From NCBI RefSeq assembly GCF_003019035.1, contig NZ_CP027447.1: a stretch of DNA of 64,000 bases; one strand, given 5' to 3'. The notes beneath the pieces are model-generated. The model was not told where the DNA came from. It saw nothing but the letters and a program-made list of their open reading frames with translations, and made no database searches. Each line of letters starts with the position of its first letter. The stretch's first letter is position 1. The DNA comes from Escherichia coli. Its GTDB lineage: Bacteria; Pseudomonadota; Gammaproteobacteria; Enterobacterales; Enterobacteriaceae. The position numbers and the translations under genes are program-made. Shown here piece after piece: positions 2,579 through 52,861 of this stretch.

Positions 2579-3076
2579 TCAAGTGTTTTGTAGAAATTGT
2601 TGCCACAAGGTCTGCAATGCATACGCAGTAGCCTGACGACGCACCGCATCACGGTCACCGCTGAAGCATTCCCGCCGGGTAATGCCTTCACCACGGGCAG
2701 TGGCAAAAGCAAACCAGACGGTGCCGACAGGCTTCTCTTCACTGCCGCCATCCGGCCCGGCGATACCACTAATAGACACAGCATAATCAGCACGAGCCGC
2801 TTTCAGTGCGCCTATCGCCATTTCCACCACGACAGGCTCGCTCACCGCGCCATGCTGCGCCAGCGTCTCTTCACGTACGCCGATCATTTGCGCTTTGGCT
2901 TCGTTACTGTAGGTGACAAATCCGCGTTCAAACCAGGCGGAGCTACCGGCAATATCGGTAATCACTTTCGCTACCCAACCACCGGTACAAGACTCAGCAG
3001 TTGTTACGGTTGCGCCACGGACTTTCAGCGCCTGCCCAACCTGTTCGCTTAACTGCATCAGTTCACTGTCAGTCAT
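2579..3076 (-). CDS. pncC: NMN amidohydrolase PncC (CinA-like competence/damage-inducible domain)
   Basis: 165 aa MTDSELMQLSEQVGQALK...; conserved position immediately upstream of recA. Confidence 0.9.
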   Translation of the reverse strand: MTDSELMQLSEQVGQALKVRGATVTTAESCTGGWVAKVITDIAGSSAWFERGFVTYSNEAKAQMIGVREETLAQHGAVSEPVVVEMAIGALKAARADYAVSISGIAGPDGGSEEKPVGTVWFAFATARGEGITRRECFSGDRDAVRRQATAYALQTLWQQFLQNT

Positions 3077-3220
3077 CACAACCTCTGTCAGTCATAAATT
3101 TATGCCGGACAAGATAGCACTTTCGTCAGGAAGATGGTGTTGGCGTTGCAATTTTACGAGGAGGATTCAGAAAAAAGCTGATTAGCCAGAGGGAAGCTCA
3201 CGCCCCCCTCTTGCAAATAG

Positions 3221-4306
3221 TTACTGCACGCGCGCCAGCGCCACGGCTTGTCCTAACTGCCAGACCGCCATTGCGTAATGGGTGCTGTGGTTATAACGGG
3301 TAATGGTGTAGAAGTTCGGCAGACCGTACCAGTACTGGTAACCTGTTCCAACATCCAGACGCAGCAGGCTGGCTTGTTGATGGTTGCCCAGCGGCTGCTG
3401 TGGCGTTAAACCTGCCGCGGCAAGTTGTGAAATGCTGTACTTGGTTTTGAAGCCATTTGGCAAGCCTGGAGCCTGACCGTTTGCCATCACCGCAACCTGA
3501 TCACCTTTCACCCAGCCGTGCGCTTTGAAATAGTTCGCCACACTACCAATGGCATCAACCGGATCCCACAGGTTGATATGCCCGTCGCCGCTGAAATCTA
3601 CCGCATATTGTTTGTAAGACGACGGCATAAACTGTCCGTAGCCCATCGCCCCGGCAAAGGAACCTTTCAGATTGAGCGGATCGTCCTGCTCATCGCGCGC
3701 CATCAGCAGGAAAGTTTCCAGCTCGCCAGAGAAATACTCCGCGCGGCGTGGGTAGTTAAATGACAGCGTTGCCAGCGCATCGAGGATACGGGTTTTCCCC
3801 ATCACGCGCCCCCAACGGGTTTCAACGCCGATAATCCCGACGATAATTTCCGGCGGTACGCCATACACCTGCCACGCGCGATTCAACGCATCTTCATACT
3901 GATTCCAGAAAACCACACCATTCTGCACGTTGTCCGGCGTAATAAATTTTTTGCGATAACGCAGCCATGCGCCGTTCGGACCTGATGGCGGTTTCACCGA
4001 TGTGGTTGGTGCCTGGTTATCCATCAGCCGCAGTACCGAATCCAGACGTTTCGCCTGAGAGAGAATTTCCTGCAACTGCTGACGATCGAAACCGTGTTTG
4101 TTCACCATTTTGTCGATGAACTGCTGGGCATTCGGGTTATTGGCGAAGTCACCGCCCATCTGCATCACATTGTGCTGCGGCTCAAGCAGGAAGCCGCCAG
4201 ACGGCGTTCCGGTGGTCGTTTCAGTCTCAGTAGGTTTTGGCTTGCTGCTACAGGCGGCAAGCAACACAAAAAGGGGAAGCAATGTTACATAACGACGCTT
4301 GAACAT
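3221..4306 (-). CDS. mltB: Membrane-bound lytic murein transglycosylase B
   Basis: Lipoprotein N-terminus MFKRRYVTLLPLFVLLAACSS (lipobox LAAC); track ORF extends 35 codons upstream of the likely start. Confidence 0.9.
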   Translation of the reverse strand: MFKRRYVTLLPLFVLLAACSSKPKPTETETTTGTPSGGFLLEPQHNVMQMGGDFANNPNAQQFIDKMVNKHGFDRQQLQEILSQAKRLDSVLRLMDNQAPTTSVKPPSGPNGAWLRYRKKFITPDNVQNGVVFWNQYEDALNRAWQVYGVPPEIIVGIIGVETRWGRVMGKTRILDALATLSFNYPRRAEYFSGELETFLLMARDEQDDPLNLKGSFAGAMGYGQFMPSSYKQYAVDFSGDGHINLWDPVDAIGSVANYFKAHGWVKGDQVAVMANGQAPGLPNGFKTKYSISQLAAAGLTPQQPLGNHQQASLLRLDVGTGYQYWYGLPNFYTITRYNHSTHYAMAVWQLGQAVALARVQ

Positions 4307-4544
4307 GAGGGGTCCATTTAACAGATTCAACCAGGGGCAAGTATGGTAAAGCATCCCGCCCCGCACAAGGAAGCGGTAGTCACTGCCCGATACGGACTTT
4401 ACATAACTCAACTCATTCTCCTCACTACCTTCTTTATATAAACTTTCAAAATAAAATATTTATCTTTCATTTTGCGATCAAAATAACACTTTTAAATCTT
4501 TCAATCTGATTAGATTAGATTGCCGTTTGGTAATAAAACAATAA

Positions 4545-6082
<1,538 letters not shown>

Positions 6083-6092
6083 AGGCTGAAAC

Positions 6093-7247
<1,155 letters not shown>

Positions 7248-22504: not shown

Positions 22505-22548
22505 TTATACAATAAGGAGATTTTTGAAAGGACTTTAACAAGCAGGAA

Positions 22549-30689: not shown

Positions 30690-31115
30690 GTGAATTTTGA
30701 TTCTCTTTGCGCGTCGCGGTTCAAAGCTGAGCGTTCGCGGTTATCACTCAAGCAGGCTGAAGTAGCAGCCCTTTGTGGCGTTTCAAGAGAAATGTGGGGG
30801 AAATATGAACGAGGGGTTGCTGTTCCCGGAGGTGAGTTACTTGCAGCCTTTGCAAGAATTGGGGCCAATGTACAGTTCATTCTTACCGGGGAGTCATCAG
30901 GTATAACTTTATCACGTGATGAAATGGAGTTACTGCAGCACTACCGGCAAGCACCGTTACAGGTCAAAGGTTCAGTTTTGTCGGCTTTGACTACTGGCTC
31001 CTCCAGAGAACGGGCGGAACAGGTTATTCATGGAGATGTTCTGGGGAATGTTATCAAAGGTAACGTAACCATAGGAACAGGTGGAATAATGAACAAAAAT
31101 ACCAAGAGAAGATGA
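30690..31115 (+). CDS. Prophage repressor (XRE-family HTH)
   Basis: GTG start with GAGG RBS; HTH LSLKQAEVAALCGVSREMWGKYERG; divergent from the transposition operon. Confidence 0.75.
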   Translation: MNFDSLCASRFKAERSRLSLKQAEVAALCGVSREMWGKYERGVAVPGGELLAAFARIGANVQFILTGESSGITLSRDEMELLQHYRQAPLQVKGSVLSALTTGSSRERAEQVIHGDVLGNVIKGNVTIGTGGIMNKNTKRR

Positions 31116-32098
31116 GTAAAGAGAAGCAAACAGTTAACGGGGATGTGGGTAACGTTGTCAGCGGTGATGTTACCATTCATAACTATTCTGCTGACATACT
31201 TCCTTCTGCCCAGCAACCAATTTCGTTGCTGCAAAAACGCGATTTACACAGATTGATGGATGAATTGGTTGATCTGGGGGAAAGTAAGCGCGAGCTATGG
31301 ATGACGATCCACACGAAACTTAATACCAAAACAGTTAATGAAATGACTGCGGCTGATTATCATGGTGCGGTTGAGATCCTTCAGAGATATGCACAACAGA
31401 TCCAGAATATGAAGGACTGTAATCTTCTGGTCAGCAAAATAATGGCGCTTACTGACCCTGGGTATCGTCTTGACCGTGACAGATACTGTCTGAAGCATTT
31501 CGGTACAACCCATCTTAAAGGCCTGGACAAAGAGCAGTTGCAGGCTGTGTTTGGTTATTTTGATGATCTGCTGAATATTCGTGATGAGAGTAAAACTCTA
31601 TCACCTCCATCGGAAAGCGGTGCAAAATCAGTCGCAACTGTACCAACCAGAAGCCGGAAGCCTCATGTAGTAGTGTTGGGGGGAGCGTTAGTTCTTGTAG
31701 CAATATTTTTCGTGGGAATGATTGTGTTCGCTGGTAAATGGGGAAATGCTAAAGCAGTAGCTTCTACTGAAACCAGCGTTTTTAACATTAAAACCAACGA
31801 CAAAATAATAGAAGATTCCATCCCCGCACTGCGCAGCATGTTTCCAGGATTAAATAAGTACTCAGATGATTTCCATTCGGTTTCAAGCTACAAGCAAAAA
31901 ACGGGCTGGCATACCCTTAAATTTACTGTATCAGCAAAGGCATCCGTCCCCGAAAATTATAGTGTTAAGGGCAAGGTTTGTTACATTAACATAAACCCTG
32001 ATGGTAGTTATGCTCGGGTTTTGACTGCTCCATGTCGTTCACTGCTACTTGATCAGCAAAGCACTCCTGACAGTAAGTACCGTTTTATTCTTAAATAG
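31112..32098 (+). CDS. Hypothetical single-pass membrane protein (moron), translationally coupled to the repressor
   Basis: ATGA overlap with the repressor stop; markedly AT-rich; one TM segment (VVVLGGALVLVAIFFVGMIVFAG) between N- and C-terminal domains. Confidence 0.6.
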   Translation: MSKEKQTVNGDVGNVVSGDVTIHNYSADILPSAQQPISLLQKRDLHRLMDELVDLGESKRELWMTIHTKLNTKTVNEMTAADYHGAVEILQRYAQQIQNMKDCNLLVSKIMALTDPGYRLDRDRYCLKHFGTTHLKGLDKEQLQAVFGYFDDLLNIRDESKTLSPPSESGAKSVATVPTRSRKPHVVVLGGALVLVAIFFVGMIVFAGKWGNAKAVASTETSVFNIKTNDKIIEDSIPALRSMFPGLNKYSDDFHSVSSYKQKTGWHTLKFTVSAKASVPENYSVKGKVCYININPDGSYARVLTAPCRSLLLDQQSTPDSKYRFILK

Positions 32099-32410
32099 AA
32101 AATAACAGCTGAATTACCATGGGAGCAGAAAAAAGACAAAGGCGATATCATGCTGCGTTCTAAAATTTTAATGTAAAAGGTGATGAACATGGCAGGGATT
32201 CAGGTTATCGCAGGAAGTTTTCCTAAAGGGTGGGCAAGCATGGGGTTCGGTACCATCGTGTTTGCCACCAATCCATGGAACGATGGGTAATGTCTGCATT
32301 TTCATAATCTGTAAGCCTTTTACAATTATTAAAAATATGGCAGGCTAGTCTGGTCTCGCGAGACTGACTGAACCTCGGTCGGCTCACAGTGCATTCCTGT
32401 GGGACGATGG

Positions 32411-32447
32411 CCAGCCCGGCTTTCGGGTGCCGGGCTGGTCGTTCTTT
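32411..32447 (+). terminator. Putative rho-independent terminator
   Basis: Perfect 10 bp stem ccagcccggc/gccgggctgg with 8 nt loop, followed by tcgttctttc. Confidence 0.5.
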
Positions 32448-32494
32448 CATGATGCGGCAGGGATAGTGGGATTTCTGTTAATGTGGTTTAGGGA

Positions 32495-32710
32495 TTATCC
32501 GGGGTGATTGTCTGCCTTTATCTGGTCCAGGGCATAAGTGATCCCTTCAGCAAAAACAGAAGTATCGAACTGCTTTTGTATTTCCTGAAAATGAACAGTG
32601 GCACGACAGATACTCAGTTCTCCGCGATGTAACCGGATAATATCTTCCAGAACATTGTTCACTGCTTCGGCACGGCGCTGATGTTCTGTTAACGTTAATC
32701 GGGGATTCAT
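32495..32710 (-). CDS. Hypothetical small protein (71 aa)
   Basis: Strong AGGAG RBS 7 nt before ATG. Confidence 0.5.
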   Translation of the reverse strand: MNPRLTLTEHQRRAEAVNNVLEDIIRLHRGELSICRATVHFQEIQKQFDTSVFAEGITYALDQIKADNHPG

Positions 32711-33113
32711 GATGCACTCCTTAAATGATGATTTTTATGTACTCACCGGCAAAATATTCTGCCGATTACTGAACACGCATCCGGCACCTCAGGTTTTGAT
32801 TTATTCTGGTTTTTTCGATATCCCGGACCAGGTTGATCACGACCAGAAAAAGTGCCGGTATTTTATTGATACGCTGATATGGCTTCGGGATAACAGCTAT
32901 ATTCGTTACTCTCAGTTGCTGGCTGTGGGAGCGGCTGATGTCGTCCTCACGGAAAAAACGCTCTGTCTGCTCAATGCCATGCCGACCTTTCTGCAGCCCC
33001 GGCCCGTACCATTTAAAGAGTTGCTTCTGGATGCAGTAAAAACCGGCGAAAATGCAGTCATCGCTGAATGCGTATCCCGGATTATGCGTTACGTGTTTAA
33101 TGAACGTAAGTGA
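32709..33113 (+). CDS. Hypothetical protein (134 aa), uncertain
   Basis: Only long ORF in the 380 bp gap; weak RBS; start overlaps the divergent 71 aa gene and 3' end overlaps the convergent NTPase gene. Confidence 0.3.
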   Translation: MMHSLNDDFYVLTGKIFCRLLNTHPAPQVLIYSGFFDIPDQVDHDQKKCRYFIDTLIWLRDNSYIRYSQLLAVGAADVVLTEKTLCLLNAMPTFLQPRPVPFKELLLDAVKTGENAVIAECVSRIMRYVFNERK

Positions 33114-33832
33114 GGTTTATCTGCTGTCTGCATAATCCCGATAGCCAGTGCGAGGGGAAGTAATTCCGGGGAAACTCTTTCAAACAGCGATGCCCATTCT
33201 CCTCTCGCCATCACTCTGTCCAGCCCGCCCCCCAGCTGCATTTCAGCAATCTTCCTGATTTCCCGGAACAACGCCGCTTTGATCTCTTCATGCTCAGCTT
33301 TATTTTCCGGTGTCAGAATGTATTCGTCGAAGAACCGGGGAGGCTGGTTAACGGGGATTGTGTTTACCGGGATGTGTTCCTGTTTCCCGTACTTCGGGGA
33401 CGAACAACATTCTGTTGGCTGACCGGTGAGTTTACGTAACTCCTTCATGAGCAGCTCCTGATCGTAAACTGTCATCAGTGCCGCAATGGTGGCATGCAGT
33501 GCATCGGGCAGTATCCAGGGTTGCCGGCCCGTGGGGCATATAACATCCAGTAGCTCATTCGTCCGACAGATACGCTCCTCTCCGTATGACAACAGGCCCT
33601 GTCCCGTGTATTCCTCCAGCCTGATCACTGTGCCAGCCCGTGGCTTCTGCCAGGTCGTCAGATCATCGCCACTCATACGGCGCTCATTCTCCACGTCAGC
33701 AGCATCGACAATGACGCTGTTTCCGAGTTCCTGTTTCACCACTTCCTCTATCCGCGCCAGTACGTAACTTTTACCGCTGCCCACAGGACCGGACACGGTG
33801 ACAGTGATGACCGGATTCAGTGTATGTGTCAT
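33089..33832 (-). CDS. P-loop NTPase/kinase-like protein (247 aa)
   Basis: N-terminal Walker A VSGPVGSGKSY and probable Walker B VIVDAAD; strong AGGAG RBS. Confidence 0.55.
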   Translation of the reverse strand: MTHTLNPVITVTVSGPVGSGKSYVLARIEEVVKQELGNSVIVDAADVENERRMSGDDLTTWQKPRAGTVIRLEEYTGQGLLSYGEERICRTNELLDVICPTGRQPWILPDALHATIAALMTVYDQELLMKELRKLTGQPTECCSSPKYGKQEHIPVNTIPVNQPPRFFDEYILTPENKAEHEEIKAALFREIRKIAEMQLGGGLDRVMARGEWASLFERVSPELLPLALAIGIMQTADKPHLRSLNT

Positions 33833-33962
33833 GTTGCATTCTCCTCTGTGAATAATTCATCGTTTATCCTGCACATCCCGTATCCCCGGCTCTCTTAACG
33901 CGCTTTAAAATCCTTCGCGCCCTGTATTTGTGATGCTGTCTCCACCAGACAAGGAGACACAC

Positions 33963-34313
33963 ATGAAAAACCTGAAAAAATTCATTCCCCCTGTTAAAAA
34001 ACCTCGCCTCAGCGGCTGGCTGCTGACCTCAGTGCTGTTGCTGGGCACCATCGCTCTGGTCTCGCCACAGCAGCTGCCTGTTGTGATCTACAAGCTGGCA
34101 CTCATCACGCTGGCAGCAGTGCTGGGTTACTGGCTTGACCGTTCACTCTTCCCCAAAGCCCGTCCCGGTCAGTACCTGAAACATGAAGACAGGCTGATGG
34201 CTGAAGGGCGTTTCCCTGTGCAGACCGGCCTTCACCTTGTATTTTCTGCTGCGTTAATCCGCCGTGCACTGATTGTTGCAGCGGTCTGTCTGGCTGTGGC
34301 AACAGGACTGTGA
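33963..34313 (+). CDS. Putative holin-like membrane protein
   Basis: AAGGAGA RBS; hydrophobic segments; immediately upstream of the endolysin. Confidence 0.4.
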   Translation: MKNLKKFIPPVKKPRLSGWLLTSVLLLGTIALVSPQQLPVVIYKLALITLAAVLGYWLDRSLFPKARPGQYLKHEDRLMAEGRFPVQTGLHLVFSAALIRRALIVAAVCLAVATGL

Positions 34314-35038
34314 CCATGAACTGGCCTCAAATCACCCTCATTATTCTGTTCGCCTTTGGTCTGGGCGTAACCGCCATCAGACACGGAGAACCACGTAACG
34401 ATAAATACAGCTTCTGGTGGCAGCTTGCTGGCAACCTGGTGATTGTCTGGCTGCTCTGGTGTGGCGGCTTCTTCAGTCAGGCCCGCGCAGCGCAGCCTCC
34501 GCAGGCTGCGCTGCAGTATCGCGATGATGTGATCCGTAATGCCCGGCTTGAATGGGGACTGTCTGCGCCGGTGGCCGATTTCGCTGCGCAACTGCATCAG
34601 GAAAGCGGCTGGCGACCTGATGCGGTCTCGCCGGCTGGCGCTCAGGGACTGGCGCAGTTCATGCCCGCCACTGCTGACTGGATAAGTCAGCTGATGCCGG
34701 GGCTTAACAGCCGTGAGCCGTTTAATCCGGCATGGGCCATCCGGGCGCTGGTCAGCTATGACCGCTGGCTGTGGCAGCGCGTCAGCGCCGCCAGTGACTG
34801 CGAACGTATGGCCATGACACTGTCGGGCTATAACGGTGGTCTGGGCTGGGTACAACGGGACAGGCAGCTAGCATCACAGAAAGGCCTGGACAGTACCCGC
34901 TGGTTCGGGCATGTCGCCACGGTGAATGCCGGACGCAATGCTGCCAGCTGGCGGGAGAACCGCCATTATCCGCAGCGCATCCTGCACGAACTGGCCCCCC
35001 GTTATCTGACATGGGGGGGCGGCAGCTGTGTGGACTAA
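34310..35038 (+). CDS. Endolysin, soluble lytic transglycosylase (SLT) family
   Basis: SLT motif ESGWRPDAVSPAGAQGLAQFMPATA. Confidence 0.75.
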   Translation: MTMNWPQITLIILFAFGLGVTAIRHGEPRNDKYSFWWQLAGNLVIVWLLWCGGFFSQARAAQPPQAALQYRDDVIRNARLEWGLSAPVADFAAQLHQESGWRPDAVSPAGAQGLAQFMPATADWISQLMPGLNSREPFNPAWAIRALVSYDRWLWQRVSAASDCERMAMTLSGYNGGLGWVQRDRQLASQKGLDSTRWFGHVATVNAGRNAASWRENRHYPQRILHELAPRYLTWGGGSCVD

Positions 35039-52805: not shown

Positions 52806-52861
52806 ACCTTCTTAAACGCCTTTAATATCGGCGCTTACTTCCCGGGGGCAATACTGCCTCC

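Follow-up and report, generated by a model that had tools for sequence, protein, structure and literature searches.

Three overlapping accessory genes between repressor and holin of a BcepMu-like Escherichia coli prophage, tentatively read as two opposing units

We analyzed a 64,000-nucleotide stretch of an Escherichia coli genome (assembly GCF_003019035.1, contig NZ_CP027447.1; hereafter the window), in which a BcepMu-like (Bcepmuvirus) Mu-like prophage carries three overlapping genes, for proteins of 247, 134 and 71 amino acids (aa), between its repressor and its holin. As summarized in Table 1, the two minus-strand genes of this trio are co-oriented with dam, and the 134 aa gene lies antisense between them. 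The 3′ ends of the 134 aa and 247 aa genes share 25 nt (33089-33113), and the start codons of the 71 aa and 134 aa genes share 2 nt (CATGATG). A Shine-Dalgarno sequence, GAGGAG (complement of 33841-33846), precedes the ATG of the 247 aa gene by 8 nt, and another, AAGGAG (complement of 32717-32722), is found 6 nt 5′ of the 71 aa start. An earlier annotation made from the DNA alone (the sequence-only reading) had given the span of the cluster (32495-33832), the strands, overlaps and ribosome-binding sites, with strong sites on both minus-strand genes, and had placed the trio between the immunity and lysis modules; all of this was reproduced exactly.

Table 1. Features of the repressor-to-holin interval and its flanks (positions in the window)
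Feature	Position	Strand	Remarks
Immunity repressor	30690-31115	+	Flank of the trio interval
dam remnant	32260..32305	-	First ~15 codons, MKMQTLPIVPWIGGK; ORF 32168-32305 compared with intact dam in L003/L024
Terminator-like hairpin	32411..32448	+	CCAGCCCGGC-N8-GCCGGGCTGG, then a T-rich tract; between dam start and 71 aa stop
71 aa helical protein gene	32495-32710	-	PHROG 4490; head-to-head with the 134 aa gene
134 aa gene	32709-33113	+	PHROG 2266; antisense between two minus-strand genes; repressor strand
247 aa mosaic protein gene	33089-33832	-	PHROG 3787; heads the leftward unit, divergent from the holin/late operon
C-terminal helical X module	33092..33340	-	Residues ~165-247; last 8 codons overlap the 134 aa gene
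Middle helical module	33428..33595	-	Residues ~80-135, WILPDALHATIAALMTVYDQELLMKELRK
N-terminal mini P-loop module	33605..33832	-	Residues 1-76; conserved in about 50 representative proteins
Dyad	33895..33908		TTAACGCGCTTTAA; halfway between the start codons of the divergent 247 aa and holin genes
Holin/SLT lysis cassette	from 33963		Flank of the trio interval, opposite side from the repressor

The three proteins matched PHROG 3787 (247 aa, E = 1e-166), PHROG 2266 (134 aa, E = 1e-43) and PHROG 4490 (71 aa, E = 1e-49), none of which carries a functional annotation in PHROG. RefSeq calls each gene as a CDS in hundreds of genomes, all three still labelled 'hypothetical', and no functional study of them was found in the literature. 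Among E. coli alleles, pN/pS in the annotated frames was 0.24 for the 247 aa gene, 0.34 for the 134 aa gene and 0.49 for the 71 aa gene, ratios that indicate purifying selection on all three. Together with the PHROG matches, the RefSeq calls and diverged homologues of the same architecture, these values indicate that the ORFs are genuine conserved genes and more than chance ORFs. An Rfam scan of 31900-34400 gave no match, and neither did a single-protein scan of viral contigs.

The 247 aa protein was found to be a mosaic, whose modules are common piecemeal to proteins of other architecture. The only part kept across about 50 representatives is the mini P-loop module, which consists of a β-strand, the Walker A motif GPVGSGKS (residues 15-22), a long helix and a short strand. 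G15, G20 and K21 were retained in at least 90% of 48 aligned relatives, and S22 is changed to N in three representatives (GKN). In a 21-sequence alignment, E50, W61 and P64 were the only conserved residues beyond Walker A, and no Walker B was conserved, position 43 (VIVD) being occupied by D, E, I, V, G, T or L. The AF2 model was confident only at residues 1-76 (pLDDT >90), the remainder having no usable fold, and fold comparison yielded no structural match to NTPases; the complete α/β core of that fold, taken as an about five-stranded sheet of at least 120-150 residues, was not recognised in it. No match past Walker A was obtained for any of the three proteins against Pfam, NCBIfam, PADLOC or PDB sequences. 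A profile of the module aligned only to the β1-Walker A-α1 segment (and the next strand) of ABC-B transporters with an E value of about 1e-5, and to a designed 'phosphate-loop protein' with an E value of 1.4e-4. In other phages, the module exists as a stand-alone protein of 68-106 aa, encoded in early/middle gene strings beside late activator, methylase or replication genes. Of the 'P-loop NTPase, small-kinase-like' assignment made by the sequence-only reading, the Walker A part is supported and the NTPase part is not, given the absence of a conserved Walker B and of any NTPase fold or family match. The mini P-loop is an optional, exchangeable N-terminal module, most likely a nucleotide or phosphate binder and not a complete NTPase.

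The other modules are likewise exchanged. The middle helical module is missing from 182-aa E. coli variants (P0012 and P0015) and forms the C-terminus of P0036 and P0038. It is present in variants of 141 and 158 aa that lack the C-terminal module, which RefSeq names 'ABC transporter ATPase'; we rejected this name as misleading, since there was no ABC_tran Pfam match and NCBIfam GlnQ scored 13 bits versus a cut-off of 379. In Serratia prophage L008 the X module stands alone as an 89-aa protein that has no P-loop; it also ends P0051 and P0043, each of which is followed by a convergent PHROG-2266 gene. As for the 71 aa protein, a 73-aa homologue occupies the same position in Serratia, and diverged counterparts in L071 and L073 belong to phrog_25421, a family with matches both to the small proteins and, inside the P-loop fusion P0044, to one of its modules. 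Profile comparison of the X module with the 71-aa family gave a weak match (hhalign probability 49.5%, E 1.7e-4), and the two may be paralogues.

Homologues of the 134 aa protein with 139, 147, 168, 126 and 145 aa all match PHROG 2266, and their genes always share the strand of the repressor. In L077-L082 the repressor is followed by an orf328-like gene, a PHROG-2266 gene (17-nt spacing) and then a convergent dam; only for this paralogue was a member seen inside the repressor operon. Word-index searches for the 134 aa family retrieved members only in E. coli and Serratia, and tblastn retrieved PhiKM only from GenBank phages and nothing relevant from plasmids. The UniRef cluster of the Serratia homologue is labelled 'DUF2513', a helix-turn-helix-clan family. 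This label was not reproduced by Pfam search, in which neither seven PHROG-2266 members nor the diverged paralogue had a match at E ≤ 0.1, DUF2513 (PF10711) included. The AF2 model of the 134 aa protein, built on a 7-sequence alignment, was unusable (pLDDT 46). The gene is deleted in 9 of 5426 complete genomes, in diverse strains, and in these variants the 247 aa gene lies directly next to the 71 aa gene on the same strand, with dam following.

The phage dam gene normally closes the leftward unit; here only 15 codons of it are left, and similarity to other prophages begins at 32260. The stem of the hairpin beyond the dam start shows compensatory changes in an alignment of E. coli variants and Serratia; in Serratia L008 (5737-5770) it was scored as a 14-bp terminator, and L073 has an equivalent hairpin with a different stem sequence. 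The dyad is kept in five diverged loci, Serratia included, and its pattern occurs at 3 sites in the window versus about 0.1 expected; since two of the three lie inside genes, little weight was given to the idea that it is a late-activator site. Sigma-70 scans returned no more sites than shuffled controls, none of them conserved, and no convincing promoter for either strand's genes, and no LexA box was seen by eye in the control region at 33833-33962. With no terminator found 3′ of the 134 aa gene, its transcription would continue in the direction of the lysis genes, and the conserved plus-strand terminator upstream of it suggests that in E. coli its expression is not simply read-through from the repressor operon.

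Of the complete E. coli genomes, about 9% have the trio, and roughly one in ten carry the prophage itself, Phi2 of strain EC958, among them the pandemic ST131 clone and the therapeutic strain ABU 83972. Among relatives, the flanking repressor and holin/SLT genes are conserved and the interval between them differs (KP12, L004, L012, L024, L026, L027, L071, L073 and L077), with at least six architectures among close relatives, which bears out the view that this is a variable cargo region. Presence of the trio thus varies among syntenic relatives and at a module boundary, as in moron-type cargo. The genes had been described as unlike core Mu functions; they match no characterised family of any other kind either, and the proposed Pfam check returned nothing significant and no phage structural or replication family. 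They are accessory genes, as yet uncharacterised, of a Mu-like prophage common in E. coli, and the interval between repressor and holin in BcepMu-like phages is a rich source of new cargo. Several different repressor alleles accompany one and the same trio allele, and we rejected an immunity-specific antirepressor on this ground.

An X-module gene, a convergent overlapping PHROG-2266 gene and a head-to-head small gene recur in four diverged versions: 247/134/71 aa in the window, 89/139/73 aa in Serratia L008, 258/147/69 aa in L071, and 224/168/~65 aa in L073. This unit, a PHROG-2266 gene set antisense between a C-terminal helical module and the gene for a small helical protein, was found in E. 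coli, Salmonella-type loci and Serratia; homologues in other genera, at 27-53% identity, keep the three-part architecture, and both gene overlaps survive extensive sequence turnover. The components are separable all the same. The P-loop is absent from the Serratia trio, and 10 of the 22 P-loop loci have neither the 134 nor the 71 aa partner. In L004, L048 and L051 the P-loop fusion is directly followed by dam. PHROG-2266 paralogues without X or a small partner were seen in L028 (second copy) and L077-L082, and the deletion variant retains X and the 71 aa gene without PHROG 2266. The three-gene unit proposed earlier therefore holds as an arrangement kept across genera, with the correction that the P-loop is no part of the conserved trio.

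Our preferred explanation, which we put forward tentatively, is that BcepMu-like prophages carry here an accessory cassette in which two oppositely transcribed units are interleaved, and not one co-transcribed three-gene system. The minus-strand unit would begin about 130 bp from the holin/late operon, divergently from it, and run through the 247 aa gene, the 71 aa gene and a structured leader into the Dam methylase of intact relatives; we infer that it is an accessory operon of the lytic cycle (induction phase). The prophage dam gene (M.EcoMIV, EC958_1101) is transcribed significantly below host dam in EC958 lysogens (PMC4659465). We counted this low transcription, and the early/middle setting of stand-alone mini-P-loop genes, for lytic timing; the plus-strand terminator just beyond dam, where an immunity-strand transcript would end, was also counted for the model, as was the gene order in the deletion variants and in L004, L048 and L051, with dam following. 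The plus-strand unit, the 134 aa PHROG-2266 gene, would be prophage-expressed cargo with a role in exclusion, defence or regulation. As this gene is contained entirely within the first unit, runs antisense to it and overlaps the genes on either side, transcription of the two units would collide, and they are probably expressed reciprocally. After phage induction, the X and 71 aa proteins may act on or counteract the 134 aa protein, as is suggested by the recurrence of X-type modules flanking PHROG-2266 genes; PHROG 2266 and X/71 aa each also occur alone, so this coupling may amount to no more than genes tied together by their overlaps. Also counted against the model were the failure of the sigma-70 scans to reveal a convincing promoter for either unit, the plus-strand terminator upstream of the 134 aa gene, the negative result for a terminator 3′ of that gene, the weakness of the profile match between X and the 71-aa family, and AF2 models with a usable fold at residues 1-76 of the 247 aa protein only. 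If the model of reciprocal expression and antagonism is true, it would describe a new means by which temperate phages link a lysogeny-phase function to its lytic-phase neutraliser.

A regulatory module, to which we assign a minor share of the probability, would make the 134 aa protein a winged-helix-like DNA-binding regulator of the dam unit and/or the late/lysis genes, with the small helical proteins as anti-regulators and Dam or lysis timing tuned by them. The embedded, divergent position of the gene is typical of autoregulated regulators, and the conserved dyad between the 247 aa gene and holin, the conserved structured leader before dam, the DUF2513 label and the PHROG-2266 member in the L077 repressor operon all fit this reading. 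However, no Pfam HTH or DUF2513 match was obtained for the seven members and the paralogue, the AF2 model gave no usable fold, the sharing of one trio allele among several repressor alleles shows that the trio is not immunity-specific, prophages without the 134 aa gene persist in diverse strains, and dam and the late genes occur in many relatives that have none of the trio. Slightly less probable still is that there is no functional unit at all and that three unrelated accessory genes are held together by coding overlap: every component occurs without the others, the whole interval is extremely mosaic, and overlap enforces co-inheritance. Against this, the geometry is kept in at least four lineages at 27-53% protein identity and with different P-loop fusion partners, X-type modules lie on both sides of PHROG-2266 genes, and the two overlaps outlast the turnover of the sequence around them.

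The defence cargo suggested by the sequence-only reading would amount to one three-protein anti-phage or abortive-infection system, with the 247 aa protein as NTPase sensor or motor and two small partners, all expressed from the prophage. We regard this as improbable, even though the region beside the immunity genes is hypervariable, Walker A is conserved, weak local P-loop similarity to SngB, HerA, BrxC/D and KAP was detected, the architecture is kept across genera, and the genes are non-essential in the lysogen, as expected of defence genes. When the PADLOC check was run, no known or candidate system model matched: the best hit (E 0.011, 12.8 bits) covered the Walker A stretch only, and PADLOC-DB v2.0.0 gave zero matches for the 134 and 71 aa proteins. 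Moreover, the Serratia trio does without the P-loop, and the P-loop does without the partners at 10 of 22 loci; the domain is only some 75 residues long, with neither a conserved Walker B nor an NTPase fold match; opposite strands and full antisense overlap preclude co-expression from one transcript; and the minus-strand genes are co-oriented with a dam gene poorly transcribed in lysogens. Only the 134 aa gene might still be defence cargo. A toxin-antitoxin or addiction module, with a Zeta-like P-loop kinase or the 134 aa protein as toxin and a small partner neutralising it, was also raised by the earlier reading, since small, tightly packed, overlapping genes in a mobile element and a faint Walker A similarity to Zeta_toxin (i-E 0.22) would fit; it is largely refuted and has very little probability left. 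In EC958 TraDIS data, EC958_1098, 1099 and 1100 took 30, 39 and 27 insertions and were all called non-essential, and the repressor EC958_1102 took 1 insertion and was called essential (PMC3789825 Table S1). The insertion index of the trio, 0.09-0.135, equals the density in neighbouring non-essential genes, and with the genes on opposite strands polarity cannot rescue loss of an antitoxin, with the caveat that insertions in the 71 aa gene could hit the promoter of the 134 aa gene. This tolerance and the deletions of the 134 aa gene contradict the proposal, as do natural variants without the P-loop or without both partners, the absence of a significant toxin or antitoxin family match in Pfam, NCBIfam and PADLOC, and the placement of neighbours on opposite strands, where a type II system has an adjacent co-transcribed pair.

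Returning to the cassette of two opposing units, a bolder joint version appears improbable as a whole. It would make the locus a new phage conflict module, with a PHROG 2266 effector and two paralogous antisense helical antagonists, whose reciprocal expression convergent transcription would enforce, combined with a natural autonomous minimal P-loop domain. The latter, a Walker-A unit of ~75 residues, would be far smaller than any known P-loop NTPase and widespread in phages, and by analogy with engineered 'ancestral' phosphate-loop prototypes it might bind nucleotide or nucleic acid via oligomerisation. If a 75-residue Walker-A domain does bind nucleotides alone, it would be a natural counterpart of minimal P-loop proteins that are so far known only from engineering.

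The module resembles the N-terminal segment of ABC ATPase nucleotide-binding domains and engineered phosphate-loop proteins (PDB 6c2u and 9jix) in its β-strand, GxxGxGKS and long helix. Unlike ABC ATPases, it stops after about 75 residues and is without Q-loop, signature motif, Walker B and H-loop. With the ATPase systems in PADLOC (Sng, HerA-containing, BREX BrxC/D and KAP) the 247 aa protein shares Walker A and a prophage-borne location, but the matches span 30-45 residues around Walker A at E 0.01-0.24, and the 134 and 71 aa partners have no matches.

The com-mom operon of phage Mu is a late DNA-modification operon with a small gene and an RNA hairpin in front. In intact relatives of the prophage studied here, a small gene and a structured leader likewise precede a DNA-modifying enzyme (Dam), and the trio unit likewise lies beside an activator-type dyad shared with the lysis operon. 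In contrast to com-mom, the 71 aa protein is without zinc-finger cysteines, the enzyme is Dam and not Mom, dam is truncated in the window, and the hairpin lies >100 nt from the dam start and is terminator-like on the opposite strand.

Prophage morons and lysogenic-conversion cargo set against a phage operon are exemplified by lambda bor/lom, rexAB and P2 old/tin/fun. Like them, the trio sits at a module boundary, is variably present among close relatives and is dispensable for the lysogen; the 134 aa gene likewise opposes the operon around it and has relatives that belong to the repressor operon. The trio differs in having no sequence or fold similarity to any of them, and the 134 aa gene, which overlaps the genes on either side and repeatedly has related helical modules next to it, does not appear to be a self-contained promoter-gene-terminator insert. 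In P22 and lambda, the exclusion gene sieB is accompanied by a linked self-immunity determinant, esc. The parallel is pure analogy, with no homology; esc lies in frame within sieB, and the genes considered here are on opposite strands. The logic that the two may have in common is that of a prophage-expressed effector and a phage antagonist encoded at one locus.

The three overlapping ORFs of the trio are genuine genes, since each matches a PHROG family (the 247 aa protein 3787, E = 1e-166; the 134 aa protein 2266, 1e-43; the 71 aa protein 4490, 1e-49), hundreds of genomes in RefSeq list all three as hypothetical proteins, and the distinct E. coli alleles gave pN/pS values of 0.24, 0.34 and 0.49, respectively, in the annotated frames. 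An ORF check bore out the coordinates, orientations and overlaps read from the sequence alone, and flagging the trio as uncharacterised was reasonable, the cluster being real and its PHROG families each being listed with unknown function. The host, a BcepMu-like (Bcepmuvirus) transposable prophage, carries the trio in the stretch that separates its repressor from its holin/SLT lysis cassette. Similar DNA was found in 583 of 5426 complete E. coli genomes, and 474 of the 5426 cover the 1.55-kb interval to 80% or more; carriers of the interval include the ST131 strains EC958 and JJ1886, as well as strain ABU 83972. Because other cargo genes fill the same repressor-to-holin interval in relatives, this interval is a cargo hotspot.

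Features of the window and of related loci (L-numbers)
Sequence	Feature	Coordinates	Strand	Remarks
Window	repressor	30690-31115	+	
Window	328 aa ORF	31112-32098	+	PHROG 10002 (unknown function); ATGA overlap with repressor stop
Window	palindrome	32353-32364		perfect, GTCTCGCGAGAC; within conserved 190-nt leader upstream of dam
Window	hairpin	32411-32448	+	conserved, with compensatory stem changes, T-tract on + strand; between dam start and 71 aa stop
Window	71 aa ORF	32495-32710	-	head-to-head with 134 aa ORF (CATGATG, 2-nt overlap); AAGGAG 6 nt upstream
Window	134 aa ORF	32709-33113	+	convergent with 247 aa gene; 25-nt overlap at 247 aa 3' end
Window	247 aa ORF	33089-33832	-	starts MTHTLNPVITVTVSGPVGSGKSY; GAGGAG 8 nt upstream
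Window	dyad TTAAMG-N2-CTTTAA	33895-33908		halfway between the 247 aa and holin genes, which diverge; conservation extends from E. coli to Serratia
Window	further dyad sites	22525-22538; 52812-52825		
Window	holin/SLT cassette	from 33963		
L008 (Serratia prophage)	counterpart hairpin	5737-5770		14-bp terminator
L028	diverged PHROG-2266 paralogue	6588-7052	-	second copy beside duplicated dam fragment, no partners
L077-L082	diverged PHROG-2266 paralogue	3001-3438	+	last gene of repressor operon
L026	'ABC transporter ATPase'	3494-3970		
L053	stand-alone Walker-A protein	4992-5240		
L055	stand-alone Walker-A protein	4992-5210		
L002 (Klebsiella phage KP12)	cargo in same interval	4290-4856		PHROG 5663, 188 aa
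L012	cargo in same interval	6034-6507		157 aa, rich in Cys and His
L026	cargo in same interval	2875-3456		PHROG 12025, 193 aa

The sequence-only reading had taken the cluster for a three-gene system centred on a P-loop NTPase, and the comparative data did not bear this out. When 1.8 billion representative proteins were searched exhaustively, 54 relatives of the 247 aa protein came to light; those other than close E. coli copies have only residues 1-76 in common (40-60% identity) and carry unrelated, shuffled C-terminal modules beyond residue 76. E. coli itself holds 182-aa variants without residues about 51-115 and 141/158-aa variants without the C-terminal third, while in IMG/VR contigs the mini P-loop module is a stand-alone protein of 68-106 aa in diverse phages, often high-GC. 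The module alignment revealed conservation of G15, G18, G20, K21 and S22 (GKN in three representatives), along with E50, W61 and P64, and no conservation at the Walker B position. Given its size of ~75 residues, the retained Walker A and the unconserved Walker B position, the domain is P-loop-derived but far too small for a canonical NTPase; it plausibly binds nucleotide and may or may not hydrolyse it. Matches of the 247 aa protein in Pfam, NCBIfam and PADLOC span only 30-45 residues around Walker A, with non-significant E values. RefSeq calls the truncated 141/158-aa variants, which occur in L026 and in about 100 genomes of E. coli, 'ABC transporter ATPase'; this name over-annotates them, as nothing but the Walker A region stands behind it.

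Stand-alone Walker-A proteins of 68-106 aa are widespread in environmental phages (L052-L064, from IMG/VR), with the consensus ITVTVSGPVGCGKSAIAGEIEIALRAVG...EKNMTGADW...YxPSV, and PHROGs places them in four families (3787, 33234, 11761 and 11809). Their genes sit within strings of small early/middle genes, next to a late transcriptional activator and an endolysin in L052, a DNA methylase in L057, and RNase H and primase-like genes in L053.

The same three-part geometry was observed in four diverged loci, all with the PHROG-2266 gene convergent and overlapping with the gene for a C-terminal helical module (module X) and head-to-head with a small gene. In the window, the X protein of 247 aa comprises the mini P-loop, a middle module and X, whereas its 89 aa equivalent in the Serratia prophage L008 is module X only, without the P-loop, accompanied by a PHROG-2266 gene of 139 aa, whose product shares 53% identity with the 134 aa protein, and a small protein of 73 aa. 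P-loop fusions with an X-type module at the end occur in L071 (P0051, 258 aa; PHROG-2266 gene of 147 aa, 34% identical; small protein of 69 aa) and in L073/L074 (P0043, 224 aa; 168 aa, 27% identical; ~65 aa, ORF not called). These comparisons show a recurrent unit of an X module, an antisense PHROG-2266 gene and a small X-like protein, to which the P-loop is an optional N-terminal fusion. The X modules can be aligned with the small proteins (profile-profile E 1.7e-4, probability just 49.5%), and phrog_25421 matches the small proteins as well as a module inside another P-loop fusion; on these grounds their paralogy is suggestive, not established.

The mini-P-loop gene adjoins the holin in 22 IMG/VR loci that are sufficiently complete: 10 hold the full trio, 2 have lost the 134 aa gene by deletion, and the other 10 lack both the 134 aa and the 71 aa gene. 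In the deletion variant, the 134 aa gene is missing from codon 19 to its end, and the 247 aa and 71 aa genes are whole and side by side on one strand upstream of dam, the phage Dam methylase gene; the deletion junction was found in 9 of the 5426 complete genomes, whose isolates came from humans, cattle, buffalo, chickens and dogs.

Toxin-antitoxin or defence cargo had also been suggested. In published TraDIS data for EC958, we matched locus tags to the trio by their order, strand and length, with SLT, holin and dam as reference points: EC958_1098 covers the P-loop gene's C-terminal part, EC958_1099 is the 134 aa gene and EC958_1100 the 71 aa gene. These carried 30, 39 and 27 insertion sites, respectively, all being scored non-essential (PMC3789825 Table S1), and their indices of 0.092, 0.102 and 0.135 were similar to those of holin (0.127) and dam (0.105), while the adjacent repressor, EC958_1102, had one insertion (index 0.003) and was scored essential (PMC3789825). 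Serum survival was unchanged for all three genes (PMC3789825 Tables S1 and S4). Insertions in every trio gene, together with the natural deletions, argue strongly against an addiction module, which is essentially excluded. As for defence, the trio had no match among the known systems in PADLOC, and a novel defence role may exist, mainly in the case of the 134 aa gene. For a DUF2513 or winged-helix identity of the 134 aa family, the UniRef label was not reproduced by Pfam, and the AF2 model was unusable. The trio is prophage accessory cargo, and it is improbable that it forms a new conflict module built around the minimal P-loop domain.

The PHROG-2266 gene lies on the repressor strand at every locus, and the minus-strand trio genes are co-directional with dam. 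In L077-L082, the repressor is followed by an orf328-like gene, a PHROG-2266 paralogue and then convergent dam, with spacings of 17-40 nt and no P-loop, X or small genes; this order and spacing place the family in the immunity operon of these phages. Their copies are 53-58% identical to the L028 paralogue, and the diverged paralogue is 25-32% identical to the 134 aa protein. The hairpin, which has no Rfam match, probably ends immunity-strand transcription after antisense crossing of dam, in which case dam would be silenced in lysogens. From the strand of PHROG-2266, the co-direction with dam, the hairpin site and the mini-P-loop neighbourhoods elsewhere, we infer that the minus-strand unit may be an induction- or lytic-phase accessory operon and the 134 aa gene a lysogeny-side cargo gene, with reciprocal expression of the two units imposed by their full antisense overlap. 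Both the expression timing and the interaction of the trio products are deduced here from sequence.

The 328 aa ORF, whose N-terminal part resembles 'membrane protein/moron' families, has displaced all but 15 codons of dam in the window prophage and is likely a lysogeny-expressed cargo gene; L026 and L034-L039 share the repressor-orf328 module, and L077-L082 have a diverged form of it ahead of the PHROG-2266 paralogue. The palindrome, which has a Serratia counterpart, GTCGTCGATGAC, that is near-palindromic too with differing bases, might form an RNA stem or serve as a binding site for a protein. The dyad pattern occurs at three window sites versus about 0.1 expected, two of them apparently intragenic, and is a possible late-activator (Mor/C-type) site.

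What is unusual at this locus is a natural, autonomous Walker-A domain family of roughly 75 residues, an antisense gene that is overlapped at both ends by perhaps paralogous modules and conserved across genera, and extreme modular shuffling.
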